Source: Gemmatimonadaceae bacterium (GTDB lineage: Bacteria > Gemmatimonadota > Gemmatimonadetes > Gemmatimonadales > Gemmatimonadaceae). Taken from it: a stretch of 64,000 bases of DNA. The translations under genes were made by a program, and so were the position numbers. Shown in pieces: positions 21,867 to 47,362 of this stretch (position 1 is the stretch's first letter; each line of letters opens with the position of its first letter). The stretch spans positions 46,723 to 110,722 of the forward strand of contig WYBP01000015.1 of NCBI GenBank assembly GCA_011525845.1, given 5' to 3'. The notes under the pieces were generated by a model that worked only from the letters and a program-made list of their open reading frames with translations, was not told the origin of the DNA and made no database searches.

Positions 21867-23219
21867 TCACATCGCGATCTTCTTCTTCTGCTGCTGGATC
21901 TTCACCATGTACTTCTCGAAGAAGAACTTCTGGATGTCCAGCATGTTGATCTCGCGGCCCTGGATGTAGGACTGCTCGATGTTCGACGTCATGTCGAGCG
22001 GCGTGCCGGTGGTGATGAGCAGCGTCGCCTCCTTCCCCACCTCGAGCGAGCCGACCTTGTCGCTCACTCCCATCATCTCGGCGGCGTTGATCGTCACCGC
22101 CTTGAGCGCCTCCTCCTCCGAGAGCCCGAAGGCCACGGCCACGCCGGCCTCCCAGGGGAGGCGGTTGCTGTAGAGCGCGCCCGAACCACCCGAGATCGCG
22201 ATCTTCACGCCGGCCGCGTGCAGCCGCGCCGGCATCGTGTACGCCCCGTCGTACCCCTCGTAGTTCCGGTCCGGCGCGGCCATGGTGGAGGTGAGGATCA
22301 CCGGCACGTTCTCCGCCTTGAGGCGGTCGGCCACGTGGATCGCATCGCGCCCACCGCGGATCACGAGGCGGAGCTTCTCCTCCTTGGCCCAGGTGATCGC
22401 GTCGTTGATCTGCGCCACCCCGTCCGCGGCGACGACCACCGGGATCGAACCGTCGAGCGCGGGCGCCATCGAGGCGTAGCGGGTGTCGGTGCGGACGACC
22501 TGCCCGGCCTTCACGGCGTCACGGTACGCGCGCGCCTCGGCGAAGAAGTCCTTGAGCTCCTGCACCTGCTCCGCATAGGTCTTCGGCGCGCGCTGCGGGC
22601 CACCCTGTCCGCCCGGAGGACCGCCACCGAATCGACGCGGACGCGCGTTGGGATCGGGCCAGTTCACGTTGAGCGCCGCAGCGCCCTTCATCGACATCTC
22701 CTCCCAGGTCCACCCCTCGAGCGACATCGCCGACGAGAGGCCCGAGATGACGCCGCCCCCCGGCGTGCTGAAGGCGACGAGGACGCCGGCCGAGCGCGTG
22801 GTGCCGATGTGCCGGCTCTCCGCGTTCACCGCGACGTCCGCGCGCACGTTCGGGTTGAAGTCCCCGATCTCGTTGACGTCGTTGGAGACGTCCACCGCGC
22901 CGATCTCCGAGATGCCGACCGTGCTGTAGGCGTCGATCAGCCCGGGATAGATGTGCTTGCCGGTGAGGTCCACCACCTTCGCGCCGGCGGGGATGGCGAG
23001 ATCCTTCCCGATGGCGCGGATGCGGCCGCCGTCGAGGACGATCGTCCCGTTCTCGATCACGCCGTTCGTCACGGTGTGGATGGTGGCCCCGCGCAGCACC
23101 ACCGCCTGCTCCTGCGGCGGCACGGTCATGCGCACCTGTGCGGTGGCGCTCCCGGCGAGCAGGGCGACGGCCGCGAGTGCGAGCGCCGGCTGCGTGATCC
23201 CCTTCAAGGTCGCGTTCAT
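21867..23219 (-). CDS. Secreted amidohydrolase-fold protein lacking the metal-binding HxH
   Basis: PGLIDAYSTVG in place of DxHxH; GSLEVGKEA C-terminal motif; signal peptide. Confidence 0.85.
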   Translation of the reverse strand: MNATLKGITQPALALAAVALLAGSATAQVRMTVPPQEQAVVLRGATIHTVTNGVIENGTIVLDGGRIRAIGKDLAIPAGAKVVDLTGKHIYPGLIDAYSTVGISEIGAVDVSNDVNEIGDFNPNVRADVAVNAESRHIGTTRSAGVLVAFSTPGGGVISGLSSAMSLEGWTWEEMSMKGAAALNVNWPDPNARPRRFGGGPPGGQGGPQRAPKTYAEQVQELKDFFAEARAYRDAVKAGQVVRTDTRYASMAPALDGSIPVVVAADGVAQINDAITWAKEEKLRLVIRGGRDAIHVADRLKAENVPVILTSTMAAPDRNYEGYDGAYTMPARLHAAGVKIAISGGSGALYSNRLPWEAGVAVAFGLSEEEALKAVTINAAEMMGVSDKVGSLEVGKEATLLITTGTPLDMTSNIEQSYIQGREINMLDIQKFFFEKYMVKIQQQKKKIAM

Positions 23220-23220
23220 G

Positions 23221-26200: not shown

Positions 26201-26274
26201 CGGATGACTCTCAAGTCGGACTCCCTTGCTGACGGCCGCGCGCGGCGCGGCCGGGTGGAGAAGAGGTGTGACAT
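23221..26274 (-). CDS. Secreted double amidohydrolase-domain protein
   Basis: Domain 1 PGFIDAHADLG; domain 2 PGLIDPHTHSG, HG, SLHSDD and GSLEAGKDAD. Confidence 0.88.
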   Translation of the reverse strand: MSHLFSTRPRRARPSARESDLRVIRPLVGLALLLAGSVGAQQSSRTEPITGLRDNGTGFHALVGARVVTAPGQVLENATIVVRNGLITAVGRDVRPPAGARVWQLAGQTVYPGFIDAHADLGMDAVPQGGDVGPTHWNPQVRAWYSTTANFKDDSTRRSALRSLGFGTALVVPKQGIFRGKASVVNLGDAGARDRVLRADLVQAIGFNRSFALGGMYPNSSMGTIALMKQTFMDAEWYIRARAAYEKGGRSVLPPETSEALAALGPVVQGQQPVLFQTESEEDYLRAQKLAAEYKLVSWYRGNGQEYRLVDVLKGRTQPLIVPLNFPDAPDVSNPEAALGATLGQLRHWYLAPTNPSQLSAAGIPFAITTDGLSSITQFLPNLRIAVARGLAPDKALASLTTVPAGWLGIDRTHGTIAVGKVANLVVADGDLFTTEASIRDVWVQGTVYGVTRPPQIDPRGTWTIATDDQEAFPATLRLEGPLNRIRGTIEAPNQRPITLASTRIIAETGRLEATFNGEQLGYQGTVLLSGSVRGEEFFGWMSLPNGTDPSYRGTRTEQYEGPARGAVAAKVPAIDLPFVRPSMEYGRSAPPPQPAVVLVRNATVWTQGPQGKLENADLLVRAGKIVQVGKGLTAPSGATVIDGTGKHVTPGLIDPHTHSGVSSVNESGFAIVPEVQMGDVLTHNNIWFYRQLAGGLTSTMIKHGSANPIGGENVYVKIRWGSLPDDMKIQGAPRTVKFALGENPKRSPNRYPNTRMGTQEIIRDHFRAARDYEAEWKRWNASDKTGIPPRKDLRMEALLDILNQKLLVSSHGYRADEFLALVRLAEEFGFRIQTLQHGVEAYKIATELANSGVAAIVWSDWGAFKLEAYDATGYNARLLIEAGVVTSLHSDDSEISTRMNWEAGKLLRTGLTEEQALSTVTNGSAKAIKIEDKVGSLEAGKDADFVIWSGNPLSQFTKAEQTWVDGRRYFSLEEDAVLRAEIAKQRTQLIQAVHAAGATETPTTNRPARAPGQGSR

Positions 26275-26406
26275 CGTAAGATGGTCCGGCGGTCCACTCG
26301 CGGCCACCCGCGGCAGGTGCGGATGCCGAACCTAAGTGCTACGCTTCCCGCCTCGCGGGCGTTGTGGCGCCCCGGATCGCCGTCCATCCCCCAGGGGAAT
26401 CGCCTG

Positions 26407-33262: not shown

Positions 33263-34105
33263 ATGATGAATGAGAGACACCGCGTACAGTCCGCCGTCCG
33301 GGCCGGTGCGTTGGCGGCCGTTGCACTGGTGATGGTGGCCTGCGCCGAGGCGCCCTCGGCACCCGAGCAGTCGCTCGTCTTCGCCAGCAGGGCTGCGACG
33401 GGCACGCTGCCGGACCCCTCGAGCCTCAATGAGCAGATCTGGGTCTGCAAGTTCGGCTCTTCGGCGACCTTCAGCGTCGCGCGTGACGGTGGTGCTGCCG
33501 CGACGCACACGCTCGCCGACGGCGAATGCAAGTCGGTGTTCGCCTGGCCGGGCGGCACGGATCCCTTCGGCGTGACGGTCACGGAGTTGGTCGAGCCGGG
33601 GCTCCGGCTGGACTCGATCGTGATCGCGAAGACGCGCGATGGCTACGAGGACGGACCGTTCACGAGCTATGGCACCCAGTCGTACCGCGCGGACATCGCG
33701 CCGGGCAAGGGCGCGGTCGTGCGGTTCTACAACACCCGCACGCCGCCCCCGCCGCCGCCCCCGACGGGCGGTCAGGGCTGCACGCCGGGGTACTGGAAGC
33801 AGTCCCAGCACTTCGACTCCTGGACCGGGTACTCGCCGAACACGCAGTTCTCGGCCGTGTTCGAGAACGCCTTCCCGGGCAAGACGCTGGTGCAGGTCCT
33901 CGGTCTTGGCGGCGGCGGACTGAACGCGCTCGGACGCCACACCGTGGCGGCACTGCTCAGCGCGTCGAGCCCCGGCGTGGACTACGGGGTCGCAACGCCG
34001 GCCGAGGTGATCGCGGCGTTCAATGCGGTCTTCCCGGGCGGCGACTACGAGACCCTGAAGAACCGGTTCGCGGCGTTCAACGAAGCGGGTTGCCCGCTGA
34101 ACTGA
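33263..34105 (+). CDS. Hypothetical lipoprotein with Pro linker and GCTPGYWK domain
   Basis: Lipobox-like VMVAC; PPPPPP linker; GCTPGYWKQ followed by a helical C-terminal domain. Confidence 0.75.
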   Translation: MMNERHRVQSAVRAGALAAVALVMVACAEAPSAPEQSLVFASRAATGTLPDPSSLNEQIWVCKFGSSATFSVARDGGAAATHTLADGECKSVFAWPGGTDPFGVTVTELVEPGLRLDSIVIAKTRDGYEDGPFTSYGTQSYRADIAPGKGAVVRFYNTRTPPPPPPPTGGQGCTPGYWKQSQHFDSWTGYSPNTQFSAVFENAFPGKTLVQVLGLGGGGLNALGRHTVAALLSASSPGVDYGVATPAEVIAAFNAVFPGGDYETLKNRFAAFNEAGCPLN

Positions 34106-34174
34106 CCGCACGTTCCTGCAGGTCCGTCGGGGCTCGGCGCGGTCGCGTCGGGCCCCGACGTCGTTGGGTCCTCG

Positions 34175-34352
34175 CGGCTATCCCGGCGAGGAGAACAAGG
34201 CGCCGCTGGTGATCCGGTCGGCCGAGGTGGACGCGCGCATCAACGCGAGCTGGCCGGACTTCGTGGCGGCGCTCAAGGCGGCGAGGGTGACGTACGAGCG
34301 GCATCTCTACCCGGGGACCCAGCACGGCTTCAACAACGGCACCACACCGCGC
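34175..34352 (+). pseudogene. Decayed, internally deleted partial duplicate of yghX
   Basis: Equals 32563-32590 joined to 32822-32971, with 9 substitutions in 178 nt. Confidence 0.85.
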
Positions 34353-34367
34353 ACTACCCCGCCCCCG

Positions 34368-35780
34368 CTACCGGCGCTCCTGTGCGCGGGCCGGGGGCGT
34401 GGCGAGGGGGCGGAGCGCCAGCTGGCCCTTCCGCGAGTAGTCCACGGACTGCTGCAGCAGCCGCGCCGCCTCCTGCGGCGCGTGGAACCCGAGCGAGTTC
34501 TCCGCCTCGACGAAGTCGACGAGGAACTGCGCCTGCCGCTGGTAGTCCTGCGCGGCGGCGAGCGCGGCGCCCGCGGGCGAGCCGGCCCGCGCCTTCTCGA
34601 GGTCCGCGATCAGCGCCATCAGGGCATCCATCGCGATGTTGCGCATGGCGTAGGTCTTCCCCTGGATGGTCTCCACGCGCTGCCGGAGCTCCCCCTCGCT
34701 CAGGCGGTGGCAGGTCTGGCAGGCGCGGTCGATCATCAGCACGGGGCTCTGCACGTGGTGGTCGCTGATCTTCTGCGCGCCCACGCGCTCGAAGGGCATG
34801 TGGCAGTCGGCGCAGGTCACCCCGCTCCGCGCGTGGATGCCCTGCGAGTACATCTCGAACTCCGGGTGCTGCGCCTTGAGGACGCTGGCGCCCGTGCGCG
34901 CGTGCTGCCAATCCTGGTGCCGGTTCTGCTGGTAGTACGCCAGGATCGCATCACCGGTGATGCCGTTCGCCCAGGGGTAGGTGAGGCGCTTCTCCGGCCC
35001 CTGGAAGTAGTACTCCACGTGGCACTGCGCGCAGACGAAGGTGCGCATCTCGCCGCGCGTGGCCTGCGTGTTCACGTCGTAGTCCCGCACGCCCTGCGAC
35101 GCCTTGTACGCGGCGATCCCCTCCATGAACGCCGGACGCGTGATGCGCAGCGCCATCGACCCCGGGTCGTGGCAGTCCACGCAGGAGACGGGGTGCGTGC
35201 CGACCTCCGCCAGCGCCTCCCGGTACGGGCGCGCGTTGAGCGCCGCGAAGCCGGCCTTCACGTCGCCGTTCCCGAGCCGGATCATCGCCGCGTAGGTCGA
35301 GGCGTGGCAGTTGATGCAGGTCCCCGGCTGCTGCGCGACCAGCTGCCGCTCGGTGTTCACCTGGTCGGTGAGCATGTAGGCGTGCCCGCGGTCCTCCCGG
35401 AAGTCCTTCGCGAAGGCGTAGCCGTCCCACATGGTCACCAGCCGCGGGTCCTCCGCGAGCCGCGACTGAGCGACGACCGCCCGGGAATCGAGGGCGGTGA
35501 CCTGACGCGGCATCGCCTCGCTGCCACCGAAGCGCGTGCGACTCATGTCGGCGGTGCGCAGGTACCGGTCGTAGTGGAGCGGGAAGTTCTTCCCCCACTC
35601 GGCCGCGTCCGTCGTCGTGTCGGTGAGCGCGACCACGCGGTAGTAGGGATCGCGCGCGTCGTCCTGCTTGCGCGTGATGTCGCGGAGGAGCGCCCCGAGC
35701 GCGAGCGCGCCGAGGGCGGACGCCACCCCGATCAGGAGGAGGGTCATCCGGGTGACGCCACGTCTCGAGGAATGCTGCAT
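34368..35780 (-). CDS. nrfA: Ammonia-forming cytochrome c nitrite reductase NrfA
   Basis: Five CxxCH motifs (CINCH, CVDCH, CAQCH, CADCH, CQTCH), CAQCHVEYYF, KAQHPEFE, ENSLGFHAP. Confidence 0.93.
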   Translation of the reverse strand: MQHSSRRGVTRMTLLLIGVASALGALALGALLRDITRKQDDARDPYYRVVALTDTTTDAAEWGKNFPLHYDRYLRTADMSRTRFGGSEAMPRQVTALDSRAVVAQSRLAEDPRLVTMWDGYAFAKDFREDRGHAYMLTDQVNTERQLVAQQPGTCINCHASTYAAMIRLGNGDVKAGFAALNARPYREALAEVGTHPVSCVDCHDPGSMALRITRPAFMEGIAAYKASQGVRDYDVNTQATRGEMRTFVCAQCHVEYYFQGPEKRLTYPWANGITGDAILAYYQQNRHQDWQHARTGASVLKAQHPEFEMYSQGIHARSGVTCADCHMPFERVGAQKISDHHVQSPVLMIDRACQTCHRLSEGELRQRVETIQGKTYAMRNIAMDALMALIADLEKARAGSPAGAALAAAQDYQRQAQFLVDFVEAENSLGFHAPQEAARLLQQSVDYSRKGQLALRPLATPPARAQERR

Positions 35781-35799
35781 CAGTCAGCCTCCGGGGAAG

Positions 35800-36291
35800 T
35801 CATCGAACCCAATGGCCCACGCTCGCATGGCAGGAGATGCAGTCGAGCGGGGGTGAGGTGGGGGTCGCGTGCGGTGCGGCGGTCGCGGGGCGCGGGAGCG
35901 TGCGTGACGGCGTGATCGCCGCGGCGAGCTCCGCATGGCAGTACAGGCACGCCTGTTGCGTGACGCGCCGGTTCCCCTCCCGGATCCGCAGCGGGTCCGG
36001 GTGTCGACCCGTGGTGAAGTTCAGGGAGTGCACGAACCCGTTCTCCGCCTTCACCAGGTACTTGTGGATGAAGTTGTCGTGCGGCGCGTGGCAATCGTTG
36101 CAGGTGGCGACCGCGCGGTGACTGGACTTCTGCCACGCCGCTGCGTGGTCGGCCATGATGTGGCAATTCGCGCAGGCCGCCGGGTCATCGGTGAGGTAGG
36201 AGTACCCGCGCGCCGCGACGAACGTGTACCCCCCGAGGCCGACCGCGAGCCCGGTGCTCACGGCAGCGGCGATCGCGAGCCATCGGAGCAT
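35800..36291 (-). CDS. nrfH: Tetraheme cytochrome c NrfH (NapC/NirT family)
   Basis: N-terminal TM; CANCH, CNDCH, CLYCH and CISCH; immediately upstream of nrfA. Confidence 0.92.
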   Translation of the reverse strand: MLRWLAIAAAVSTGLAVGLGGYTFVAARGYSYLTDDPAACANCHIMADHAAAWQKSSHRAVATCNDCHAPHDNFIHKYLVKAENGFVHSLNFTTGRHPDPLRIREGNRRVTQQACLYCHAELAAAITPSRTLPRPATAAPHATPTSPPLDCISCHASVGHWVR

Positions 36292-36419
36292 CAGGCCACG
36301 CGGGCGAAGGTCGGCGGCATCACCCTCCTGAGATACCGCGAGGTTCCGAGGTCGGCAAGTCGGCACGGGCACGACGCGCGCCTCGATGACCGGGAGGCGG
36401 TGTCGCTATCTTTAGAGGC

Positions 36420-37739
36420 ATGACCAAGAGCGCAGACCTCATCGCCCGCCGCAAGGCGGCCATCCCCGTCGGCGTCGGGATGTTCAACGACGCCACGGCC
36501 CAGGAGGCGAGTGGCGCGACCATCACGGACGTGGACGGCCGCACGCTGATCGACTTCGCCGGCGGGATCGGCGTGGTGAACGCGGGCCACTGCCCGCCCC
36601 CGGTGGTGAAGGCCATCCAGGAGCAGGCGGCGAAGTTCATCCACGTGAGCTTCAACGTGGCGAGCTACGAGCCCTACGTGGCGCTCGCCGAGAAGCTGAA
36701 CGCGCTGCTCCCGCACGGCGGGCCCACCAAGACGATGCTCGTGAGCACGGGCGCGGAGGCGGTGGAGAATGCGGTGAAGATCGCGCGCCAGGCCACCGGT
36801 CGCCCCGGCGTGCTCTGCTTCACCGACGCCTTCCACGGGCGCACCCTGATGGCGATGACGCTCACCAGCAAGGTGCAGTACAAGACCGGGTGCGGGCCCT
36901 TCGCCCCCGAGGTCTACCGCACGCAGTTCCCGAACTTCTACCGCTACGGCGCCGGTCGTTCCGAGGCGGAATTCGTGAAGGCGGAACTCCGCCGGCTCGA
37001 GGAGCTCTCGCACACGCTCGTGGCGCCGGAGAACCTCGCGGCCGTCATCATCGAGGTGGTCCAGGGCGAGGGGGGCTTCAACGTGGTGCCGGCCGCCTAC
37101 CTCAAGGGGCTGCGCGCCTTCTGCGACGCGCACGGCATCCTCCTCATCCTCGACGAGATCCAGACGGGGTTCGGGCGCACCGGCGCGTGGAGCGCATACT
37201 CGCACTTCGGCGTCACCCCCGACCTCAGCACCTGGGCCAAGAGCCTCGGCAGCGGGATGCCGATCGCGGCGGTGGTCGGCAAGGCGAAGGTGATGGACGC
37301 CGCGGGCCCGAGCAGCATCGGCGGCACCTACATCGGCAACCCGGTGAGCTGTGCCGCGGCGCTCGCGACGCTCGAGTACATGGAGGAGATCGACATCAAC
37401 GCGAAGGGGCGCCACGTGGGCGAGGTCGTGCGCAAGCGCTTCGACGCGTGGAAGCGCCAGCACCGGCAGATCGGCGACGTGCGCGGGCTGGGCGCGATGC
37501 TCGCGATCGAGTTCGTCGAGGAGGGCGACCCGCTCCGCCCCGACGCCACGACGGCCACCGCGCTGATGCAGGCCTGCTCCAGGCGCGGCCTCGTCGTGAT
37601 CACCGCGGGCACCGAGAAGAACATCATCCGCGTCCTCGGACCCCTCGTGATCGACGACGCGACGCTCGCCAAGGGCCTCGACATCATGGAGAAGGAGCTG
37701 GCGCGCATCTGCGGGACCCCCGTGAAGAAGAGCGCATGA
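36420..37739 (+). CDS. gabT: Class III aminotransferase, 4-aminobutyrate aminotransferase-like
   Basis: IDFAGGIGV, STGAEAVENAVKIAR, DEIQTGFGRTG, AKSLGSGMP. Confidence 0.88.
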   Translation: MTKSADLIARRKAAIPVGVGMFNDATAQEASGATITDVDGRTLIDFAGGIGVVNAGHCPPPVVKAIQEQAAKFIHVSFNVASYEPYVALAEKLNALLPHGGPTKTMLVSTGAEAVENAVKIARQATGRPGVLCFTDAFHGRTLMAMTLTSKVQYKTGCGPFAPEVYRTQFPNFYRYGAGRSEAEFVKAELRRLEELSHTLVAPENLAAVIIEVVQGEGGFNVVPAAYLKGLRAFCDAHGILLILDEIQTGFGRTGAWSAYSHFGVTPDLSTWAKSLGSGMPIAAVVGKAKVMDAAGPSSIGGTYIGNPVSCAAALATLEYMEEIDINAKGRHVGEVVRKRFDAWKRQHRQIGDVRGLGAMLAIEFVEEGDPLRPDATTATALMQACSRRGLVVITAGTEKNIIRVLGPLVIDDATLAKGLDIMEKELARICGTPVKKSA

Positions 37740-38695
37740 AGGCGTTCTCGATCGCCGGCGTCCAGATGCGGGTGAACGCCTCCTACAGCAACGTGGAGGC
37801 GATGAAGCTCAAGCTCGACATCCTCATGCACCTCTATCCCTGGGTGGACATGGTGGTGTTCAGCGAGCTCTGCGCGCACGGGCCGCTCACGATGCACGCG
37901 CAGGAGGTGCCCGGCGCGTTCGAGCAGGAGATGTGCGCCGCGGCCGCGAAGCACGGCGTCTGGCTCCTCCCGGGGAGCGTCTTCGAGCGCCGCGACGGGC
38001 TGATCTTCAACACCGCCTCCGTGATCGACCCGCAGGGGAGCGTGGTGACGCGCTACCGGAAGATGTACCCCTTCTACCCGTACGAGGTGGGGGTCACCCC
38101 GGGCACGGAGTTCTGCGTGTTCGACGTGCCCGAGGTCGGGCGCTTCGGCGTGAGCATCTGCTACGACATGTGGTTCCCCGAGACGACGCGCACGCTCGCC
38201 GTGATGGGAGCGGAGGTGATCCTCCACCCGACGCTCACGGGCACGATCGACCGCGACATCGAGCTCTCGATCGTGCGGGCGTCCGCGGCGATCAACCAGT
38301 GCTACTTCTTCGACGTGAACGGGCTCGACACCGGGGGGAGCGGGCGCAGCATCGTCTGCGGTCCCGACGGCCGCGTGATCTACGAGGCGCAGAACCACGA
38401 GGAGTTCTTCCCGATCGAGCTGGACATGGAGCGGGTGCGCCGGAGCCGCGAGCTGGGCGTGCTGCGGCTCGGGCAGCCGCTCAAGAGCTTCCGCGATAAC
38501 CCGGTCACGTTCGACATCTACCGGCCGGGCGCGCACCTTCCCTACCTGGAGGGCCTCGGCGCGCTGATCAAGCCGTCGCGCGTGAAGGAGCTCGGCGAAC
38601 TGCACCTGCGGGACGAGGCCCGGGGCGCCCTCGAGGCCGGGCTCGGCCCGATCGAGACCGCGTACCGGCCGCCGCACGAGGAGCCGGGCACCTGA
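37736..38695 (+). CDS. Carbon-nitrogen hydrolase (nitrilase superfamily)
   Basis: Glu-Lys-Cys triad in FSEL, YRKMYP and ICYD; ATGA overlap with gabT. Confidence 0.9.
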   Translation: MKAFSIAGVQMRVNASYSNVEAMKLKLDILMHLYPWVDMVVFSELCAHGPLTMHAQEVPGAFEQEMCAAAAKHGVWLLPGSVFERRDGLIFNTASVIDPQGSVVTRYRKMYPFYPYEVGVTPGTEFCVFDVPEVGRFGVSICYDMWFPETTRTLAVMGAEVILHPTLTGTIDRDIELSIVRASAAINQCYFFDVNGLDTGGSGRSIVCGPDGRVIYEAQNHEEFFPIELDMERVRRSRELGVLRLGQPLKSFRDNPVTFDIYRPGAHLPYLEGLGALIKPSRVKELGELHLRDEARGALEAGLGPIETAYRPPHEEPGT

Positions 38696-38754
38696 GCGCG
38701 ACGCATCCCTGACCCTGGACCGGCGGACCGCGCCGGAAGGAGAATGATCGCACC

Positions 38755-39321
38755 ATGGGCAACATCGCACCGACGAAGGGGCGCCCGCGCCTGAAGGACT
38801 TCGTGAGCTGGTTCGAGATCCCGGCGTACGACATCAACCGCGCGGCGGCCTTCTACAACACGATCTACCAGATGGAGATGGAGGTGAACGTGAATGGCGA
38901 CTTCGCCATGGCGTTCTTCCCCGCGGACCGCGGGATCGGCGGCGCCGTGGTCGTGGGACCGGGCTGCACGCCGAGCGCGACCGGGCCGCTCATCTATCTC
39001 AACGCCGGCCAGGACCTGGACAGCGTGCTCGCGCGCGTGGAAGCCGGGGGCGGGCGCGTGATCATGGCGCGCAGCATGATCAGCGAGAGCGCGGGCGCCT
39101 TCGCCCTGATCATCGACAGCGAGGGGAACCGGATCGCGCTGCACGAGGGGCCGCGCGCCGCGGCGACGCAGGCCGATGCGAGGCCGTCGGCGAAGCCGGC
39201 CAAGGCGGCGGGCAAGTCGGCGAAGCCGGCCAGGACGGCCAGGACGGCCAAGACGGCCAAGACGGCCAAGACGGCCAGGACGGCGTCCGCGAGGAAGAAG
39301 CCGGGTAGCAAGTCCCGGTGA
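38755..39321 (+). CDS. VOC-family protein with basic low-complexity C-terminal tail
   Basis: VSWFEIPA..GAFALIIDSEGNRIALH; Lys/Arg/Ala/Thr-rich tail. Confidence 0.88.
   Translation: MGNIAPTKGRPRLKDFVSWFEIPAYDINRAAAFYNTIYQMEMEVNVNGDFAMAFFPADRGIGGAVVVGPGCTPSATGPLIYLNAGQDLDSVLARVEAGGGRVIMARSMISESAGAFALIIDSEGNRIALHEGPRAAATQADARPSAKPAKAAGKSAKPARTARTAKTAKTAKTARTASARKKPGSKSR
39228..39281 (+). repeat. Six tandem copies of 9-bp GGCCA(A/G)GAC
   Basis: Encodes ART-ART-AKT-AKT-AKT-ART in the VOC tail. Confidence 0.9.
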
Positions 39322-42056
39322 GCACCCCCGCCCCCGTCACGCGCCAGCACTTCAACGCGGCACGGCTGCGCGCCTACACCTGGAACCAGCTCAAGCTCGA
39401 GGTGACCTCGCTCGACGAGGGGCGCGGCAAGGCGGCCGCCGCCGGGGCGGTCACCGCCCTGCTCGAGGAGCTCGTCGTGCTCGAGCAGTACTGGGCGTAC
39501 CCGGGGATCGTGCGGGTGCGGCAGCTGCGCGCGCTCGCGGCCGCCGGGCAGTGGCACGCGCTCCACGTCGCCGTGGACCAGATCGTGCGCGCACTGGTGA
39601 GCGGGGCGTTCCGGAACGACCCGCTGCGCACCATCGCGGATCCGGTGGGTCCGGAGGAGGAGGAGGGGGACACCACCGAGCGGCACCGCCAGAACTACTT
39701 CGAGGTGCTCGTCGTCGATGAGATCGACGACGCCGAGGAGGAGGCGCTCAAGGGCCGGGTGCGCAAGTGTCGCGACGCGGCGGACCCGTTCACGTACGAC
39801 GTGATCGTCGCCCGCACCGCCCAGGACGCGCTCATCGCACTCCTCTTCAACCACAACATCCAGTCGGTCGTGGTGAAGTACGGCGTCTCCTTCCCGAGTC
39901 CCAACGCCAGGGGGTTCCTGCGCCCCTTCCTGCGCGCCTTCGACGCGCTCGACCTGAGCACGGTGAGCAAGAGCGACATGGGGCCGGCCCTCGGCGACAT
40001 CGTCCGGGAGTTCCGCCCGGAGGTGGACCGGTACTACGTGACCGACACGCCCGTGCCCGACCTGCACGACAGCACCATCCGCAACTTCCGCCGCATCTTC
40101 TACCGCGCCGAGGACGTGCAGGAGCTGCACCTGACGATCCTGCGCGGGATCCAGGAGCGGTTCGAGGCGCCCTTCTTCACGGCGCTCACGGAGTACAGCA
40201 AGAAGCCGATGGGCGTCTTCCACGCCATGCCGATCTCGCGCGGCAACAGCGTGTTCAAGAGCCGCTGGATCCAGGACTTCGGCGAGTTCTACGGCCGCAA
40301 CCTCTTCCTGGCCGAGACGAGCGCGACCACGGGCGGGCTCGACTCCCTCCTGCAGCCCACGGGGCCGCTCAAGAAGGCACAGGAGCTCGCCGCCCGCGCC
40401 TTCGGCGCGCAGCACACCTTCTTCGCCACCAACGGCACGAGCAGCTCGAACAAGATCGTGGTGCAGGCCCTGGTGGAGCCGGGGGACGTGGTGCTGATCG
40501 ACCGCGACTGCCACAAGAGCCACCACTACGGGATGGTGCTGAGCGGCGCGTACCCGGTCTACCTGCACAGCTATCCGCTCCCCAAGTACAGCATGTACGG
40601 GGCAGTCCCGCTGGAGCACATCCGCGAGAAGCTCCTCAGCCTCCGCGCCGGCGGCCGGCTCGACCGCGTGAAGATGCTCCTCCTCACCAACTGCACCTTC
40701 GACGGCGTGGTCTACAACGTCGAGCGGGTGATGGAGCAGGTGCTCGCGCTCAAGCCGGACATGGTCTTCCTCTGGGACGAGGCCTGGTTCGCCTTCGCGA
40801 ACTTCAGCCACCTGATGCGGCAGCGGACCGCGATGCACGTGGCCGCCAAGCTCCGCCGGAAGTACGACAGCGAGGCATACAAGAAGGAGTACGCGGCGCA
40901 CATCGCGGGGCTCAAGCGCGGCGAGGAGCCCCGCCTCCCCGACCCGGCCAAGGTGCGCATCCGCGTCTACGCCACGCAGAGCACGCACAAGACGCTCAGC
41001 TCGATGCGCCAGGGGAGCATGATCCAGGTCTGGGACGAGGACTTCCGGCGCAAGAGCGAGGCCTCCTTCCACGAGGCCTACATGACGCACACGAGCACGA
41101 GCGCCAACTACCAGATCCTCGGGAGCCTCGACGTGGGGCGGCGCCAGGCCGTGTTCGAGGGGCACGAGCTCGTCGAGAAGGCGATCGAGCTCGGGATGAT
41201 GCTCCGCCGCACGATCCGCGAGCACGAGAAGCTCAAGAAGTGGTTCGACATCATCACGATCGGCGAACTCATCCCCAAGGCGCACCGCGAGAGCGGGATC
41301 GAGGGGTACTACTCGCGCGAGAAGGGGTGGCTCGACATCGAGCGGGCGTGGGCCGAGGACGAGTTCGCGCTCGACCCCACGAAGATCAACCTCTACACCG
41401 GCAAGACGGGGATCGACGGCGACACGTTCAAGAACAAGTACCTGATGGACAAGTACGCGATCCAGGTGAACAAGACCTCGCGCAACAGCGTGCTGTTCAT
41501 GACGAACATCGGCACCACGCGCGGGTCGCTCGCCTACCTGACCAAGGTGCTGCTCGAGATCGCGGCGGACCTCGAGCAGCGGAACGCCGGGATGTCGCCC
41601 CCCGAGAAGCGGCTCCACCTCGGGGCGATCCGCTCCCTGGTGGAGGAGGTCCCGCCCCTCCCTGACTTCGGCCGCTTCCACGACTCCTTCGTGGCGGTGC
41701 CCGGCGTGCCCGGGGGCGACCTGCGCGCCGCGTACTTCCTCGCGTACGACGAGCGGCGCTGCGCGCACCTCAAGCTGCAGGACTGCCTCGAGGCGATGCG
41801 GCAGGGACGCGAGCTCGTCTCGGCGTCCTTCGTCATCCCCTACCCGCCCGGCTTCCCCGTGCTCGTGCCGGGCCAGGTGATCGAGCGCGAGATCATCGAC
41901 TTCCTGATCGCCATCGACGTGAAGGAGATCCACGGCTTCCGGCCGGAGCTCGGCCTGCGCGTCTTCACCGACGAGGCGCTCGGCCGGCAGCGCACCGGGA
42001 CCGCCATCGGTGGGATGCGATCCGCGACCCCAACTCCCAGGAAGAAGGCCAAATGA
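39318..42056 (+). CDS. Long-form Orn/Lys/Arg decarboxylase (PLP fold I)
   Basis: FATNGTSSSNK, DRDCHKSHH, LTNCTFDG, DEAWF, QSTHKTLS (PLP lysine), PYPPGFP. Confidence 0.92.
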   Translation: MSTPAPVTRQHFNAARLRAYTWNQLKLEVTSLDEGRGKAAAAGAVTALLEELVVLEQYWAYPGIVRVRQLRALAAAGQWHALHVAVDQIVRALVSGAFRNDPLRTIADPVGPEEEEGDTTERHRQNYFEVLVVDEIDDAEEEALKGRVRKCRDAADPFTYDVIVARTAQDALIALLFNHNIQSVVVKYGVSFPSPNARGFLRPFLRAFDALDLSTVSKSDMGPALGDIVREFRPEVDRYYVTDTPVPDLHDSTIRNFRRIFYRAEDVQELHLTILRGIQERFEAPFFTALTEYSKKPMGVFHAMPISRGNSVFKSRWIQDFGEFYGRNLFLAETSATTGGLDSLLQPTGPLKKAQELAARAFGAQHTFFATNGTSSSNKIVVQALVEPGDVVLIDRDCHKSHHYGMVLSGAYPVYLHSYPLPKYSMYGAVPLEHIREKLLSLRAGGRLDRVKMLLLTNCTFDGVVYNVERVMEQVLALKPDMVFLWDEAWFAFANFSHLMRQRTAMHVAAKLRRKYDSEAYKKEYAAHIAGLKRGEEPRLPDPAKVRIRVYATQSTHKTLSSMRQGSMIQVWDEDFRRKSEASFHEAYMTHTSTSANYQILGSLDVGRRQAVFEGHELVEKAIELGMMLRRTIREHEKLKKWFDIITIGELIPKAHRESGIEGYYSREKGWLDIERAWAEDEFALDPTKINLYTGKTGIDGDTFKNKYLMDKYAIQVNKTSRNSVLFMTNIGTTRGSLAYLTKVLLEIAADLEQRNAGMSPPEKRLHLGAIRSLVEEVPPLPDFGRFHDSFVAVPGVPGGDLRAAYFLAYDERRCAHLKLQDCLEAMRQGRELVSASFVIPYPPGFPVLVPGQVIEREIIDFLIAIDVKEIHGFRPELGLRVFTDEALGRQRTGTAIGGMRSATPTPRKKAK

Positions 42057-43591
42057 CCAAGCGTACCAGGCGTCCCGCCAAGCCCACGGCGGCGAAGAAG
42101 AAGGCCGCGCGCAAGCGCACGGCCAGCGCGCCGCCCGTCAAGGGCGTGAGCGACATCCGGCGCTTCTTCTACCGGAACGAGACCCCGCTCTACTTCATCA
42201 GCGCCACGAACTTCAACCTCCTCGGTGCCGACGAGTGGGTGAAGGGGTTCAAGTTCATCTCCTACATCGACTGCTTCGACGGGCTGCACCCGAACCTGAT
42301 GACGCCGATGCACGAGGAGCCGCACGCCGAGTTCCAGAGCATCGAGGACATCAACAACTACCTGCTCACGCACAGCGAGGTGCGGGACTACATCGAGAGC
42401 CGGAAGGTGGACGGGGATGCCGGCAAGGCGATGTTCCTGATGTTCGACGAGACGACGGAGGCGCTCGCGAAGAAGGCCGGGCTCGAGGTGATGTTCCCGA
42501 GCGCGAAGATGCGGACCTTCATGGACAACAAGGTCAACACCAACCGCATCGCCGAGAAGGCGGGCGTGCCCTGCGTGCCGTACGTGCTGAGCCGGGTGAA
42601 GGACTACCAGCACCTGCTCACCGTGGCGAGGAAGCTCGGCACCGACCTCGTGGTGCAGACCCCCTTCGGGGACAGCGGCCACACGACCTTCTTCATCAAG
42701 GACGAGGCGGACTACCGGAAGTACGCCAGGGAGATCGAGGCCGAGAAGGAGTGCAAGGTGATGAAGCGGATCAACTGCCGCGGGGCCGCGATGGAGGCCT
42801 GCGTCACGCGCCACGGCACGATCGTCGCGCCCCTCATGACCGAGCTCGTGGGCTTCAAGGAGCTCACCCCCTACAAGGGCGGGTGGTGCGGGAACGAGAT
42901 CTTCGCGGAGACGTTCACGCCGGCGATCCGCCGCAAGGCGCGCCGGTACGCGCGGCTCTTCGGCGACCAGCTCCGCAAGGAGGGGTACAAGGGGTACTTC
43001 GAGCTCGACTTCCTGATCGACCAGGACACGGGCGCGATCTACCTCGGCGAGCTCAACCCCCGCGTCACCGGCGCGAGCAGCATCACCAACCACGCCGTCT
43101 TCGCCATGAGCGATGCCCCGCTCCACCTCTTCCACATGCTGGAGTGGATGGACCAGCCCTACGAGCTGAACGTGACCGCGCTCAACCGGCGCTGGGCGCG
43201 GGACGAGAACATCGACACGTGGGGCCAGATGATCATCAAGCACACCGAGGACGACGTGCGCCGCGTGACCGAGGCGCCGCGCAGCGGCATCTGGCGCATG
43301 CGCGCCGACGGGAGCATCTACTTCTGGCGGATGGACACCCACCGCCGCTACGTGGAGAAGGACAACGAGGCCTTCTTCATGCGCATCACCCGCGTGGGGG
43401 ACTGGCTCTACGAGGGCGCCGACATCGGGATCCTCGTGATGCGCGGCCGGATGATGACCGAGGACTTCCAGCTGACGCCCCGCGCCAAGAAGTGGCTCGC
43501 GGCCATCCGCCGGGAGTACAAGAGCGTCGTGCCGGGCGAGCGTTCGGGCGAGGCGCACCCGATGGAGATCGGCCACTTCAAGATGGTCTGA
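42053..43591 (+). CDS. ATP-grasp-fold ligase of unknown specificity
   Basis: VVQTPFGDSGHTTF, GYFELDF, ELNPR; ATGA overlap; no biotin carrier or carboxyltransferase gene nearby. Confidence 0.8.
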   Translation: MTKRTRRPAKPTAAKKKAARKRTASAPPVKGVSDIRRFFYRNETPLYFISATNFNLLGADEWVKGFKFISYIDCFDGLHPNLMTPMHEEPHAEFQSIEDINNYLLTHSEVRDYIESRKVDGDAGKAMFLMFDETTEALAKKAGLEVMFPSAKMRTFMDNKVNTNRIAEKAGVPCVPYVLSRVKDYQHLLTVARKLGTDLVVQTPFGDSGHTTFFIKDEADYRKYAREIEAEKECKVMKRINCRGAAMEACVTRHGTIVAPLMTELVGFKELTPYKGGWCGNEIFAETFTPAIRRKARRYARLFGDQLRKEGYKGYFELDFLIDQDTGAIYLGELNPRVTGASSITNHAVFAMSDAPLHLFHMLEWMDQPYELNVTALNRRWARDENIDTWGQMIIKHTEDDVRRVTEAPRSGIWRMRADGSIYFWRMDTHRRYVEKDNEAFFMRITRVGDWLYEGADIGILVMRGRMMTEDFQLTPRAKKWLAAIRREYKSVVPGERSGEAHPMEIGHFKMV

Positions 43592-43628
43592 CCCTGCCCC
43601 TCCTCCGCGAACCCGCCGCCATCTCCGG

Positions 43629-44660
43629 ATGCGACTGCACCTGAAGCTCGAGCACGAGCCCTGGCCCGGGGAGCGCTGGCAGCAGCACTTCACGGCCACC
43701 TGGCCCGCGTACCGCCGCTGGTACCTCGGCGAGGGGGAGTCGGCACGCCCGGACCTCGTCACCTGCCAGTCGGTGCTCGAGCTGTACATGCCGGAGCTGC
43801 TCCCGGTGTACCGCAGCCTCTGCCGGCTGGCCGGCGACGATGACGTCGCGTCGCGCTTCCTGACGATGTGGTGCCCGCCCCCCTACCTCGCGGGGTGCTC
43901 GCAGCTCGCGTGGACCGGGCGCGAGCCCACGCTCGTGCGCAACTATGATTTCGACCCGCGCTACTTCGACCAGCGGCTGAAGTACACCGAGTACCGCCGG
44001 CCGGTGATCGGGATGCAGGACAGCGGGTGGGGACTGCTCGACGGGATGAACGCGGACGGGCTCGCCGCGGCGCTCGCCTTCGGGGGGCGGAAGCTCCACG
44101 GCAGGGGGTTCGGCATCCCGCTCGTGGTGCGCTACGTCCTGGAGACCTGCGGCACCGTCGCGGAGGCGTGCGCCGCGCTCTCGCGCGTCCCCGTGCACAT
44201 GAGCTACAACGTCACGCTGGTGGACCGGGGCGCGCACGCCGCCACGGTCTTCCTCAACCCCGACCGCGCGCCCGAGGTGATCGACCGCGCCTGGTGCACC
44301 AACCAGCAGCACCGCGTGGAGTGGGACGAGTACTCCGCCTTCACGCACACGCCGGCGCGCCAGGAGGCGCTCGTCGCCGCCGCGGCGGACCCGGCGCAGT
44401 CGCCGCGCGCGCTCATCGAGCGCTTCCTCAAGCCGCCCCTCTACACGCAGCAGTACTTCCGCGGCTTCGGCACGCTCTACACCGCCGCCTACGACGTCGC
44501 GCGCGGGAAGGTCGCGATCGTCTGGCCCGAGAAGCGGCTCGAGGCGAGCTTCGACCGGTTCGAGCCGCAGGAGGCGGACGTCGTCCTCCTGCGTCCCGTG
44601 GGCCGTCACATGATCAAGGGGAGTGCGCCGCGGCCCGCGGCGAGCGGCGATCCCGGCTAG
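43629..44660 (+). CDS. C45-family autoproteolytic Ntn-hydrolase/acyltransferase
   Basis: AG|CS nucleophile Cys followed by RNYD; DGMNADGL; TNQ. Confidence 0.85.
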   Translation: MRLHLKLEHEPWPGERWQQHFTATWPAYRRWYLGEGESARPDLVTCQSVLELYMPELLPVYRSLCRLAGDDDVASRFLTMWCPPPYLAGCSQLAWTGREPTLVRNYDFDPRYFDQRLKYTEYRRPVIGMQDSGWGLLDGMNADGLAAALAFGGRKLHGRGFGIPLVVRYVLETCGTVAEACAALSRVPVHMSYNVTLVDRGAHAATVFLNPDRAPEVIDRAWCTNQQHRVEWDEYSAFTHTPARQEALVAAAADPAQSPRALIERFLKPPLYTQQYFRGFGTLYTAAYDVARGKVAIVWPEKRLEASFDRFEPQEADVVLLRPVGRHMIKGSAPRPAASGDPG

Positions 44661-45079
44661 CCCTTCCCGCTGCCGATCGCCGGACGGTCCCCCGCCCGAC
44701 GGGCCAGCGCGAGCGTCCCCGACGCGGAACCAGCACCCATCAGCATCGTGACCCCCGCGACGGCGATCGGGAACCCCACGAGGCTCGCGAGCCCCCCGAC
44801 CATGACGCCACCCACGGCGCCCCAGGCCGCGAAGCGGCCGAGCGAGAGCTCATCGAACCGCCGCTTCCCCTCGGCCAGGCCCAGCACCAGCGAGAAGCCC
44901 GCACCACAGAGGAACCCGGGGAGTGCGAGCGTCACGGGCCAGATGTCGATGAAGCCGAGCGGGAGCGCAGGGAAGAGCTCGGACACGAGCTCCACCCCCA
45001 TGCCGACGATCCCCCAGGCGATCGCCCAGGTGAGCCCCATCCCCGCCGCGCCCCGCAACCGCAACAACGCTCTTCGCAT
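44657..45079 (-). CDS. Small hypothetical membrane protein
   Basis: 3-4 hydrophobic segments; starts 18 nt after the katG stop. Confidence 0.7.
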   Translation of the reverse strand: MRRALLRLRGAAGMGLTWAIAWGIVGMGVELVSELFPALPLGFIDIWPVTLALPGFLCGAGFSLVLGLAEGKRRFDELSLGRFAAWGAVGGVMVGGLASLVGFPIAVAGVTMLMGAGSASGTLALARRAGDRPAIGSGKG

Positions 45080-45097
45080 CGCCAGGACTCCCGTCGT

Positions 45098-47362
<2,265 letters not shown>

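Follow-up and report, generated by a model that had tools for sequence, protein, structure and literature searches.

Which compound do the six co-oriented genes at positions 36420-44660 of the window, the whole 64 kb stretch of DNA that was analyzed, make, conjugate and release? They encode a GabT-like aminotransferase, a C-N hydrolase, a small VOC protein, a long-form PLP decarboxylase, an ATP-grasp enzyme and a C45 Ntn hydrolase, and the first-pass annotation read them as a pathway in which a diamine is produced, acylated and set free again. Our results point to GABA in place of the diamine: we give a probability of roughly 60% to the reading that the operon combines a GABA shunt with an ATP-driven side branch that conjugates GABA.

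Organization and conservation of the operon

All six open reading frames lie on the forward (+) strand. Three junctions are 4-nt overlaps that read ATGA, GTGA and ATGA, and the remaining intergenic gaps are 59 and 37 nt, exactly as first described. No terminator-like site was found on the + strand inside the operon, and the GC3 of the six frames is 0.96-0.99, as expected for real genes in this genome of 70% GC. The families first assigned to the six products hold in HMM searches, with the VOC call weak from the single sequence and supported by an orthologue profile. The presumed promoter occupies the intergenic region between a divergent nrfH-like gene, the call of which ends at 36291, and the operon (36292..36419, + strand). 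Within it, TATCTTTA at 36407-36414 resembles TAnnTTTG, the -7 motif of Bacteroidota promoters, and no sigma-70 type site was found in this region. The sole 'RNA' run containing the locus looks like DNA.

The six-gene operon is real and widely conserved, in an arrangement far beyond chance. We counted gene positions in Bacteroidota loci with enough flanking sequence, and the denominators vary by gene. The order aminotransferase, C-N hydrolase, decarboxylase, ATP-grasp is kept on one strand in 49 of 58 related loci, and the proposal of a single operon is borne out. Upstream of the ATP-grasp gene lie the decarboxylase gene (57/61 loci), the C-N hydrolase gene (52/59), the aminotransferase gene (49/58) and the VOC gene (43/60), and the C45 gene lies downstream of it in 59/67, such that the genes do co-occur in many other genomes. 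In 42 of 60 loci a gene for an aldehyde dehydrogenase resembling succinate-semialdehyde dehydrogenase (SSADH) follows downstream, and 14 loci among the relatives contain an APC permease gene; in Chondrinema the order is gabD, gabT, C-N hydrolase, decarboxylase, APC permease, ATP-grasp, C45. The operon in the window has neither an aldehyde dehydrogenase nor a transporter gene, as had been noted, although most relatives do carry them, and no SSADH-like gene was found anywhere in the 64 kb window.

The decarboxylase and a probable GABA shunt

The decarboxylase (912 aa, 39318..42056) is a long-form, four-domain PLP enzyme of the Rv2531c subfamily (OKR_DC_1, 5e-78), a class of about 900-950 aa marked by an extra N-terminal domain. 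It matches PDB entries 9n0o/9n0n with 779.6 bits (E 3e-233), residues 44-905 aligning with 42-905 of 9n0o over the full length of the four domains, and it is 43% identical over 873 columns to M. tuberculosis Rv2531c, a 947-residue 'cloaked' glutamate decarboxylase from the Lys/Orn/Arg superfamily with the same four domains (PMC13506015; 9n0n/9n0o/9n0p, PMC12329521). Rv2531c is an L-glutamate decarboxylase, Mg2+-dependent in its activity on L-glutamate and inactive on Lys, Orn and Arg in vitro; its deletion leaves Lys, Orn, Arg and cadaverine unchanged in vivo, and in M. tuberculosis the labeling of free GABA from 13C-glutamate depends on it (PMC13506015). Its R576 has been modeled to pair with the γ-carboxylate and is absent from lysine decarboxylase, and Flavobacteriia share a sequence-similarity-network (SSN) cluster with Rv2531c (PMC13506015). 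This arginine, along with H405, K406, K570 (the PLP lysine), T606 and N731, is identical in Rv2531c and invariant in the window protein and 66 operon-linked orthologues, whereas R718 of Rv2531c is replaced by lysine in all 66 of these orthologues. As the characterized member of the subfamily uses L-glutamate and not Lys, Orn or Arg, the product is most likely GABA rather than agmatine, putrescine or cadaverine. By analogy, then, we hold with some confidence that the window enzyme is a glutamate decarboxylase, the identity of 43% counting against this reading.

These observations bear directly on the first-pass proposal, in which the decarboxylase makes agmatine, putrescine or cadaverine, the ATP-grasp enzyme acylates it, the aminotransferase acts on the free end and the C45 and/or C-N hydrolase removes the acyl group. 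The Pfam/NCBIfam names (Orn/Lys/Arg decarboxylase, with scores low relative to the cut-offs) speak for it, as does the fact that some C45 enzymes hydrolyze β-alanyl-amines. However, the window protein scores 155-200 bits against the LdcC, CadA, SpeF and AdiA models, far below cut-offs of about 970-1310, the characterized relative is inactive on all three basic amino acids, and the arginine assigned to pairing with an acidic side chain never varies. The dehydrogenase linked to the operon resembles SSADH, the operon relatives conserve neither an oxidase nor an aminoaldehyde step, and the probable relative of the ATP-grasp enzyme discussed below uses GABA as an acyl donor. A diamine product is, on this evidence, very improbable.

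The class-III aminotransferase (439 aa, 36420..37739; PF00202, Aminotran_3, 4e-119) reaches 497.5 bits against TIGR00700 (GABAtrnsam), just under the cut-off of 506.65, and its orthologues in Chondrinema and Roseobacter carry the gabT annotation; it is likely a GABA transaminase, again by analogy. It had been assigned to the free end of a conjugate, but because succinate-semialdehyde dehydrogenase is encoded in the operon of most relatives, the ordinary reaction on free GABA would be its simplest role. The decarboxylase, the gabT product and the succinate-semialdehyde dehydrogenase of most relatives most likely form a GABA shunt, which would follow the classical one (GadB, GabT, GabD) from glutamate through GABA and succinate semialdehyde to succinate. 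The classical shunt differs in that it uses a GadB-type fold-I decarboxylase, from a different family to that in the window operon, and in that it is without counterparts of the C-N hydrolase, VOC, ATP-grasp and C45 proteins. The E. coli Gad/YbaS acid-resistance module offers a further likeness, with an APC-family permease in some relatives of the operon and an amidase in all that could supply glutamate.

The ATP-grasp protein and its hydrolase partner

The ATP-grasp protein (512 aa, 42053..43591) carries the database name 'biotin carboxylase' from NCBIfam NF005096, which it matches with 758 bits (cut-off 684); CPSase_L_D2 gives a weak match. Its AF2 model (pLDDT 86.5) matches ATP-grasp enzymes with a Foldseek probability of 1.0, and the closest folds are biotin carboxylase and PurK. 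The name and these structural neighbors would suit a genuine biotin carboxylase subunit, yet the identity to them is merely 12-15% and neither Biotin_carb_N nor Biotin_carb_C has a Pfam match in the protein. The Mg/ATP-binding E-x-N motif is conserved (E333-L-N335-P-R337), whereas the QVEH of the biotin carboxylase motif NxRxQVEH aligns with TGAS of ELNPRVTGAS, placing Ala341, at least 90% conserved across the family, at the position of the catalytic Glu. A biotin carrier or carboxyltransferase gene occurs neither in the window operon nor in any of about 90 neighborhoods, and Rv1722, a probable relative, is a ligase. The chance that this is a true biotin carboxylase is accordingly negligible, and the ligase-type assignment made at first stands.

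With WP_211296008.1 of M. aquaticum the protein shares 45% identity (E 2e-145). An M. aquaticum protein, ORA22265.1, presumably the same one, is listed as an Rv1722 homologue with E 1.6e-174 (bioRxiv 10.64898/2026.04.15.718621). After the actinobacterial genes of the ATP-grasp family comes one for a hydrolase of the beta-lactamase fold, about 400 aa long, and Rv1723, next after Rv1722 by gene numbering, is a beta-lactamase-family serine enzyme. The window protein thus very probably belongs to the Rv1722 family, linked to it through the NF005096 match, the M. aquaticum member and synteny rather than through Rv1722 itself. The two share the same mis-annotation, a similar size (512 aa against 514 aa for Rv1722), a long-form decarboxylase as phylogenetic partner and a hydrolase neighbor; they differ in that the neighbor is the beta-lactamase-fold Rv1723 in M. 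tuberculosis and the C45 Ntn enzyme in the window operon.

Rv1722 (GabtS), which carries the annotation of a possible (biotin) carboxylase, uses ATP to join GABA to trehalose in an ester bond; the purified enzyme uses free GABA, as an acyl donor via its carboxylate, and GABA-trehalose reaches millimolar concentration in M. tuberculosis (bioRxiv 10.64898/2026.04.15.718621). Both Rv1722 and Rv2531 have been scored as genes that the ancestor of slow-growing mycobacteria acquired horizontally, and this co-acquisition, with the adjacency of their homologues in the 57 of 61 loci counted above, supports the reading of the ATP-grasp protein as a GABA ligase, which by analogy we find rather likely. The acylation of an amine, as originally proposed for it, does not agree with this relative, which activates the GABA carboxylate and esterifies a sugar hydroxyl.

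The ATP-grasp gene adjoins a hydrolase gene almost everywhere. Its partner here, in Proteobacteria and in one actinobacterial group is a C45 enzyme, and some Actinobacteria have an Rv1723-like enzyme of the beta-lactamase fold; this exchange for a non-homologous hydrolase counts for a releasing role of the C45 protein. The ATP-grasp gene also adjoins other routes that likely yield GABA: in Shinella and Roseateles the ATP-grasp/hydrolase pair lies within an arginine to 4-guanidinobutyrate to GABA cluster, and in Arthrobacter it adjoins a flavin amine oxidase gene.

The C45 protein (343 aa, 43629..44660) is a proenzyme of the Ntn hydrolase/acyltransferase type (PF03417, AAT/C45, 3e-30; NF040521, 146.9 bits, cut-off 85). 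Its nucleophile motif, G88-C89-S-Q, does not vary among 72 orthologues, and self-cleavage is predicted at Gly88|Cys89, giving an N-terminal Cys nucleophile. From its gene context it is a candidate GABA-conjugate hydrolase or transferase, an assignment to which we give slightly less than even odds. The protein is not obligatory, because in about eight Bacteroidota loci the ATP-grasp gene is followed directly by the aldehyde dehydrogenase gene without C45, and no C45 enzyme is known from M. tuberculosis. Carnosine synthase, an ATP-grasp enzyme, activates the carboxylate of an omega-amino acid, and Drosophila Tan, a C45 enzyme, hydrolyzes omega-aminoacyl conjugates. Their pairing resembles that in the operon, with an ATP-grasp enzyme acting on an omega-amino acid (β-alanine or GABA) and a C45 enzyme on the conjugate; unlike the operon genes, the animal enzymes are not genetically linked, and no specific sequence relation to them is detectable.

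A proposed GABA-conjugating side branch and its alternatives

From the characterized homologues, the long-form decarboxylase would convert L-glutamate to GABA and CO2, and the GabT-like enzyme would convert GABA and 2-oxoglutarate to succinate semialdehyde and glutamate, succinate then being made by the SSADH of the operon in most relatives and by one encoded elsewhere in this genome. The ATP-grasp enzyme would activate the GABA carboxylate as an acyl phosphate and join it to a putative acceptor, such that GABA is buffered when it is produced faster than it is consumed. M. tuberculosis uses trehalose as the acceptor, and this may differ here; there are no trehalose genes near the operon. Gene context suggests that the C45 enzyme could split the conjugate and return GABA to the shunt, or move the GABA acyl group elsewhere. 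The logic of making, conjugating and releasing a molecule, with C45 as the releasing enzyme, remains the best reading of the operon, and what changes from the original proposal is the chemistry, with GABA most likely taking the place of the diamine.

In E. coli, PuuA is a glutamine-synthetase-like ligase and PuuD is the γ-Glu-GABA hydrolase. Like the proposed pathway, Puu joins an ATP-dependent conjugation to a release by hydrolysis, and it leads to GABA, a GabT-type transamination and a dehydrogenase. The window operon, however, is without diamine, oxidase and γ-glutamylation, the folds are unrelated, and GABA itself is probably what is conjugated, via its carboxylate. We considered and rejected a γ-glutamyl polyamine pathway of the Puu type: the decarboxylase has a predicted specificity for glutamate, the aldehyde dehydrogenase is SSADH-like, and no oxidase is conserved. 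The idea of a fold-swapped Puu analogue finds no support, and neither does that of aminoacyl-polyamine biosynthesis or recycling.

Rv2531c has an exceptionally high K0.5 of 509 mM for glutamate and shows hysteresis and a Hill n of 4 (PMC13506015), so free glutamate may be neither the sole nor the best substrate. Conjugation might then come first: the ATP-grasp enzyme would ligate glutamate or a glutamyl compound to an acceptor, the decarboxylase and possibly the aminotransferase would act on the conjugate, for which free glutamate is a poor surrogate, and the two conserved amidases, otherwise without a role, would release the product. This order seems quite unlikely, as the 13C-glutamate label reaches free GABA through Rv2531c in M. 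tuberculosis, purified Rv1722 takes free GABA, and the ATP-grasp/C45 pair is also found where the decarboxylase is missing, beside routes that end in GABA itself.

The ATP-grasp and C45 enzymes might also build a GABA-containing end product, such as a signal, a compatible solute or a nutrient of the rhizopine type in rhizobia, with C45 serving as an acyltransferase like isopenicillin-N acyltransferase and the shunt merely sharing the GABA pool. The decarboxylase, ATP-grasp and C45 genes of R. leguminosarum adjoin nifHDKE, and after them come genes for an ABC transporter, an amidase and a regulator of the MurR/RpiR family; in Roseobacter a peptide-type ABC transporter lies downstream of the cluster; both fit a biosynthetic purpose, as does the millimolar GABA-trehalose of M. 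tuberculosis. Against this, no exporter or importer is conserved across the Bacteroidota loci, the genes are interleaved with the catabolic gabT and gabD, and the presence of an unrelated hydrolase fold in place of C45 in Actinobacteria suits hydrolysis better than specific transfer. We consider such a product unlikely, and retain a GABA shunt with a conjugating side branch as the preferred reading.

We tentatively extend this reading to evolution, while thinking it somewhat less probable than not: the operon may be the ancestral linked form of an ATP-driven GABA-buffering cycle that occurs in over 500 species across Bacteroidota, Proteobacteria and Actinobacteria, and from which slow-growing mycobacteria would have acquired Rv2531c and Rv1722 horizontally, with C45 as the missing GABA-conjugate hydrolase. 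If so, the Rv1723-type beta-lactamase-fold enzyme would be the conjugate hydrolase in some Actinobacteria, and further steps of GABA metabolism would fall to the C-N hydrolase and the VOC protein. Rv2531c itself stands alone, whereas the operon gene sits with gabT, ATP-grasp and amidase genes; the operon joins two enzyme families whose functions emerged only in 2026, in M. tuberculosis.

Any specific role for the C-N hydrolase or the VOC protein is doubtful at best. The VOC protein (38755..39321), which from gene context may be an accessory, has a glyoxalase-fold core of about 130 aa and a lineage-specific basic tail rich in Lys, Ala and Thr; a single-sequence search is weak (Ble-like_N, 0.004), and a profile of 14 orthologues matches the VOC structures 3oxh (Rv0577, E 7e-6), 2r6u and 4pav. 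Its gene is absent from the proteobacterial loci examined. The C-N hydrolase (319 aa, 37736..38695; PF00795, CN_hydrolase, 1e-28) belongs to the nitrilase superfamily, reaches no equivalog model and has only remote PDB relatives (Nit2 and PH0642, about 1e-18). Its Glu-Lys-Cys triad motifs FSELC, YRKM and CYDMWFPE are intact and conserved in 58 orthologues, and it has a conserved C-terminal extension. Gene context suggests that it might remove an amide in the same metabolism, possibly yielding glutamate from an amide precursor, and an orthologue with 51% identity lies in the Shinella arginine/GABA cluster.

Layout and surroundings of the operon

Six open reading frames (ORFs) occupy positions 36420-44660 on the + strand of the window, which has a GC content of ~70%, and each has a GC3 of 0.96-0.99. 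The first encodes a class-III aminotransferase (36420-37739) that scored 497.5 bits against the TIGR00700 GabT equivalog, just under the cut-off of 506.65. HMM scans of the translations identified a nitrilase-superfamily C-N hydrolase (37736-38695), a 912-residue protein of the Orn/Lys/Arg decarboxylase superfamily (39318-42056) and a C45 proenzyme (43629-44660), while the orthologue profile of the small protein encoded between the first two of these (38755-39321) matches solved structures of the VOC/glyoxalase fold. The remaining ORF encodes a 512-residue ATP-grasp protein (42053-43591) that exceeded the cut-off of NCBIfam NF005096, 'biotin carboxylase'. Three junctions are overlaps (ATGA, GTGA and ATGA) and the other two are gaps of 59 and 37 nt; no terminator-like site was found on the + strand inside the operon, and an Rfam scan of the window gave zero matches. 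When ORFs, families, overlaps and gaps were rechecked, the description of the operon in the first-pass annotation, made from sequence alone, proved correct in every detail.

The flanking genes are unrelated to the operon. Upstream lies a divergent cytochrome c nitrite reductase pair, nrfA/nrfH (34368-36372, - strand; NrfA with a NapC/NirT-type NrfH), and downstream a convergent catalase-peroxidase gene, katG (45098-47350, - strand), neither of which is kept beside the operon in other genomes. A 140-residue membrane ORF convergent with the C45 gene (44657-45079) was set aside, as its conservation outside its own species is absent. Elsewhere in the window, three amidohydrolase-family genes (5692-7215, 21867-23246 and 23221-26307, one encoding 1028 residues) and a gene for a 992-residue AAA_16/LuxR regulator (8957-11935) have no visible connection to the operon. 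A public run labelled transcriptomic RNA-Seq (X2) was rejected as expression evidence: its coverage of positions 34000-46000 is flat and genome-like on both strands (depth ~17-29, with 44 in the last bin) and its contigs reach 185 kb, so it is probably DNA and holds no expression information.

A decarboxylase of the Rv2531c type in a putative GABA shunt

The first-pass annotation had proposed that the decarboxylase makes a diamine that is subsequently acylated and freed again, either in a Puu-like pathway or in the formation or recycling of an aminoacyl-polyamine. When the decarboxylase is compared with PDB sequences, it aligns over almost its entire length (779.6 bits, E 3e-233) with 9n0o/9n0n/9n0p, titled 'probable amino acid decarboxylase', which are structures of Mycobacterium tuberculosis Rv2531c (PMC12329521); the two proteins are 43% identical over ~870 columns. 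Rv2531c, with which the long, four-domain form of the superfamily was first defined, has no decarboxylase activity on Lys, Orn or Arg; it decarboxylates L-glutamate in vitro in a Mg2+-dependent manner with a K0.5 of 509 mM and a Hill coefficient of 4, and its deletion abolishes 84% of cellular GABA along with all 13C-glutamate labelling of GABA (PMC13506015, PNAS 2026). The same work modelled R576 on the gamma-carboxylate and placed Flavobacteriia in the sequence-similarity-network (SSN) cluster of Rv2531c (PMC13506015).

Among 66 aligned operon-linked orthologues, H405, K406, K570 (the PLP lysine), R576, T606 and N731 (Rv2531c numbering) are invariant. Close to the active site, these proteins differ consistently from the mycobacterial enzyme at one position: R718 is replaced by Lys in 66/66 operon-linked decarboxylases (residue 705 of the window protein). 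H596, named in PMC12329521, mapped to a position in the alignment numbering that is not histidine and was left out of the comparison. The homology and the invariant residues together indicate that the product is most likely GABA rather than a diamine, which contradicts the chemistry proposed initially; a literature search combining ATP-grasp, C45, decarboxylase and polyamine found nothing relevant. An alternative order of events, with conjugation first and decarboxylation later, is kept alive by a single observation, the very high K0.5 of Rv2531c for free glutamate.

Homology searches return ATP-grasp relatives in the thousands, and in a set with one genome for each GTDB species at least 541 species have the protein. 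The best 80 of these are all Bacteroidota-type MAGs or isolates (Flavobacteriales, Cytophagales, Saprospirales and Balneolaceae), and their neighbourhoods were characterized by tblastn with the six window proteins and by clustering of all neighbouring ORFs, with counts restricted to loci having enough flank. The decarboxylase gene lies directly upstream of the ATP-grasp gene on the same strand in 57/61 loci; the C-N hydrolase, aminotransferase and VOC genes are upstream in 52/59, 49/58 and 43/60 loci, respectively, and the C45 gene is downstream in 59/67. The order aminotransferase, C-N hydrolase, decarboxylase, ATP-grasp is retained in 49/58 loci. Candidate cultured strains with the operon are Polaribacter glomeratus ATCC 43844, Psychroflexus gondwanensis ACAM 44, Brumimicrobium mesophilum JCM 14063, Salinimicrobium flavum KCTC 42585 and Robertkochia aurantiaca. 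An aldehyde dehydrogenase gene that is missing from the operon described here follows C45 in 42 of 60 loci, its best models being succinate-semialdehyde dehydrogenases (SSADH), and no gene for this step was found in the 64-kb window. An APC-family permease gene, also missing from the window, is located between the decarboxylase and ATP-grasp genes at 14 loci.

The GABA shunt is a classical pathway, and the decarboxylase, gabT and the SSADH-like gene (the last in relatives, not in the window) would together form a complete one. Judging from homology and context, glutamate would be converted to GABA by the decarboxylase, and GABA would then be transaminated to succinate semialdehyde and oxidized to succinate. 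The plainest example is on a Chondrinema litorale plasmid, where the order is gabD, gabT, C-N hydrolase, decarboxylase, APC permease, ATP-grasp and C45.

The ATP-grasp protein of the window is 68-84% identical to those of the Bacteroidota loci (L005-L084), which range from 32% to 70% GC; its operon neighbours are less conserved, with median identities of 59% (decarboxylase) and 47% (C45). Conservation so far above that of the neighbours points to an unusually strong constraint on this enzyme. At about eight Bacteroidota loci (L047, L052, L063, L076, L077, L079, L081 and L082) the ATP-grasp gene is followed directly by the SSADH-like gene and C45 is not nearby, suggesting that C45, though common, is not required, or that its gene lies elsewhere in the genome.

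The ATP-grasp enzyme as a putative GABA ligase

Although its NCBIfam match names it a biotin carboxylase, the sole Pfam match of the ATP-grasp protein is a weak one to an ATP-binding domain. An AlphaFold model built on a 15-sequence alignment (pLDDT 53) was discarded; a 52-sequence alignment gave a model with a pLDDT of 86.5, whose closest folds are biotin carboxylases and PurK at just 12-15% identity. Where the NxRxQVEH motif has its catalytic glutamate, the window protein has Ala341 (in the sequence ELNPRVTGAS), a position conserved family-wide, and no biotin carrier or carboxyltransferase gene was found in any ATP-grasp neighbourhood examined. Taken together, these four lines of evidence exclude a true biotin carboxylase.

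A more informative relative is M. tuberculosis Rv1722, a GABA-trehalose synthetase. This ATP-grasp enzyme, formerly annotated as a possible (biotin) carboxylase, forms an ester from GABA, trehalose and ATP, and GABA-trehalose reaches millimolar levels under hypoxia and NO; its degrading enzyme is not known, and homologues of Rv1722 were sought within Mycobacterium only (preprint 2026, 10.64898/2026.04.15.718621). A profile-based homology search found family members in Mycolicibacterium and M. aquaticum and did not reach the M. tuberculosis clade. WP_211296008.1 of M. aquaticum shares 45% identity with the window protein (E 2e-145), and an M. aquaticum protein, presumably the same one (ORA22265.1), is listed as an Rv1722 homologue with an E-value of 1.6e-174 (Table S1 of 10.64898/2026.04.15.718621). 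Rv1722 and Rv2531 are among the few genes that the ancestor of slow-growing mycobacteria acquired horizontally (Veyrier et al. 2009), and their homologues are neighbours in the operon, which supports membership of Rv1722 in the ATP-grasp family. The distributions match as well, since the long-form decarboxylase and Rv1722 both occur in slow growers and neither is present in M. smegmatis or M. abscessus (PMC13506015; 10.64898/2026.04.15.718621). Based on these observations and the synteny with a beta-lactamase-fold hydrolase described below, Rv1722 very probably belongs to the same family; by analogy with it, we estimate a probability of roughly two in three that the window enzyme likewise ligates GABA. 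No mention of PRK06524 was found in the literature.

By the Rv1722 precedent, surplus GABA would be activated as an acyl phosphate and joined by the ATP-grasp enzyme to an abundant acceptor as an ester or amide. Gene context suggests that the self-cleaved C45 enzyme might then hydrolyze the conjugate or transfer its GABA acyl group. The make-conjugate-release logic of the first-pass annotation would thus survive in part, with GABA in place of its diamine chemistry.

Rv2531c and Rv1722 were characterized in 2026 in two separate papers, each on M. tuberculosis alone and with no analysis of gene context beyond the mycobacteria (PMC13506015; 10.64898/2026.04.15.718621). What appears undescribed is that both enzyme families are physically linked, in one operon, to gabT and gabD, that the ligase is almost always partnered by a hydrolase, and that C-N hydrolase and VOC genes, which may be unexplored parts of GABA metabolism, are conserved alongside. 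Homologues of the two mycobacterial proteins are adjacent, translationally coupled and beside gabT/gabD in hundreds of environmental bacteria; this provides independent support for both functional assignments, argues for GABA conjugation as a strategy of bacteria in general rather than a mycobacterial oddity, and would correct thousands of database entries that read 'ornithine decarboxylase' or 'biotin carboxylase'.

Partner hydrolases and accessory genes

The G-C-S-Q motif of C45 is invariant in 72 sequences, with self-cleavage predicted at Gly88|Cys89. From its gene context, C45 is the candidate conjugate-degrading enzyme of this operon. Outside Bacteroidota, tblastn located the ATP-grasp family on plasmids of Rhizobium, Sinorhizobium, Cupriavidus, Roseobacter, Shinella and others. 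Roseobacter ponti carries C-N hydrolase, decarboxylase, ATP-grasp and C45 genes in that order, with gabT nearby, followed by a peptide-type ABC transporter. At loci from Shinella zoogloeoides (L086) and a 'Roseateles sp. XES5' plasmid (L088) the long-form decarboxylase is absent, and the ATP-grasp-C45 pair is found inside a catabolic cluster encoding an agmatinase-family ureohydrolase, 5-guanidino-2-oxopentanoate decarboxylase, aldehyde dehydrogenase, D-amino-acid dehydrogenase, racemase and RidA, which we take to be the route from arginine through 2-ketoarginine and 4-guanidinobutyrate to GABA. An orthologue of the C-N hydrolase, 51% identical to that of the window, is beside this cluster. 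The two regions have identical gene content, so the Roseateles record (flagged UNVERIFIED_ORG) may be misassigned.

One actinobacterial group has the order M20 deacylase, ATP-grasp, GATase, C45. In Arthrobacter sp. KNU40 (L094, 10001-12837) and a Dermatophilaceae member (L095, 10001-13016) the ATP-grasp gene is followed not by C45 but by a gene for a beta-lactamase-fold serine hydrolase of ~400 residues. The Arthrobacter pair is preceded by genes for an amino-acid permease, an M20/M28 peptidase, a C-N hydrolase and a flavin amine oxidase; this C-N hydrolase, at just 30% identity, was not counted as an orthologue, and the oxidase could not be assigned as a putrescine oxidase. By gene numbering, Rv1723 presumably adjoins Rv1722 in M. 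tuberculosis. It is an uncharacterized serine enzyme of the beta-lactamase family that is itself a poor beta-lactamase, and because the actinobacterial pairs mirror Rv1722-Rv1723, we propose it by analogy as a candidate GABA-trehalose esterase.

The constant unit in these contexts is therefore an ATP-grasp enzyme with a hydrolase; the fold of the hydrolase is swappable, and the unit attaches to differing routes that end in GABA. A ligase acting on GABA and a hydrolase reversing the ligation would be expected to give such a pattern. A less likely, biosynthetic alternative, in which C45 is a transferase and the product a stable GABA-containing compound, is suggested by a symbiosis plasmid of Rhizobium leguminosarum Vaf10 (L089; NZ_CP016290.1, 1-19383). 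Here the decarboxylase, a small ORF, ATP-grasp and C45 abut nifHDKE, and after these four genes come those for an ABC transporter, an amidase, a MurR/RpiR regulator and a serine hydrolase. By analogy with rhizopines, this context suggests that a GABA conjugate could be produced or used in nodules.

The C-N hydrolase of the window has an intact Glu-Lys-Cys triad, and its structural relatives are remote (the omega-amidase Nit2 and N-carbamoylputrescine amidase, ~1e-18). One idea is that it supplies glutamate from an amide; another is that it cleaves a GABA amide. Basic low-complexity tails rich in Lys, Ala, Pro and Thr, such as AKPAKAAGKSAKPARTARTAKTAKTAKTART, are found on three of the six operon proteins, at the C-termini of the VOC protein (39151-39318) and the decarboxylase (42000-42053) and at the N-terminus of the ATP-grasp protein (42053-42136). 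In Actinobacteria, the ATP-grasp homologues carry tails of ~110 residues at the N-terminus that are likewise histone-H1-like, some of which match Pfam PF07382. The character of the tails is kept but their sequence is not, and they might serve in co-localization or polyanion binding.
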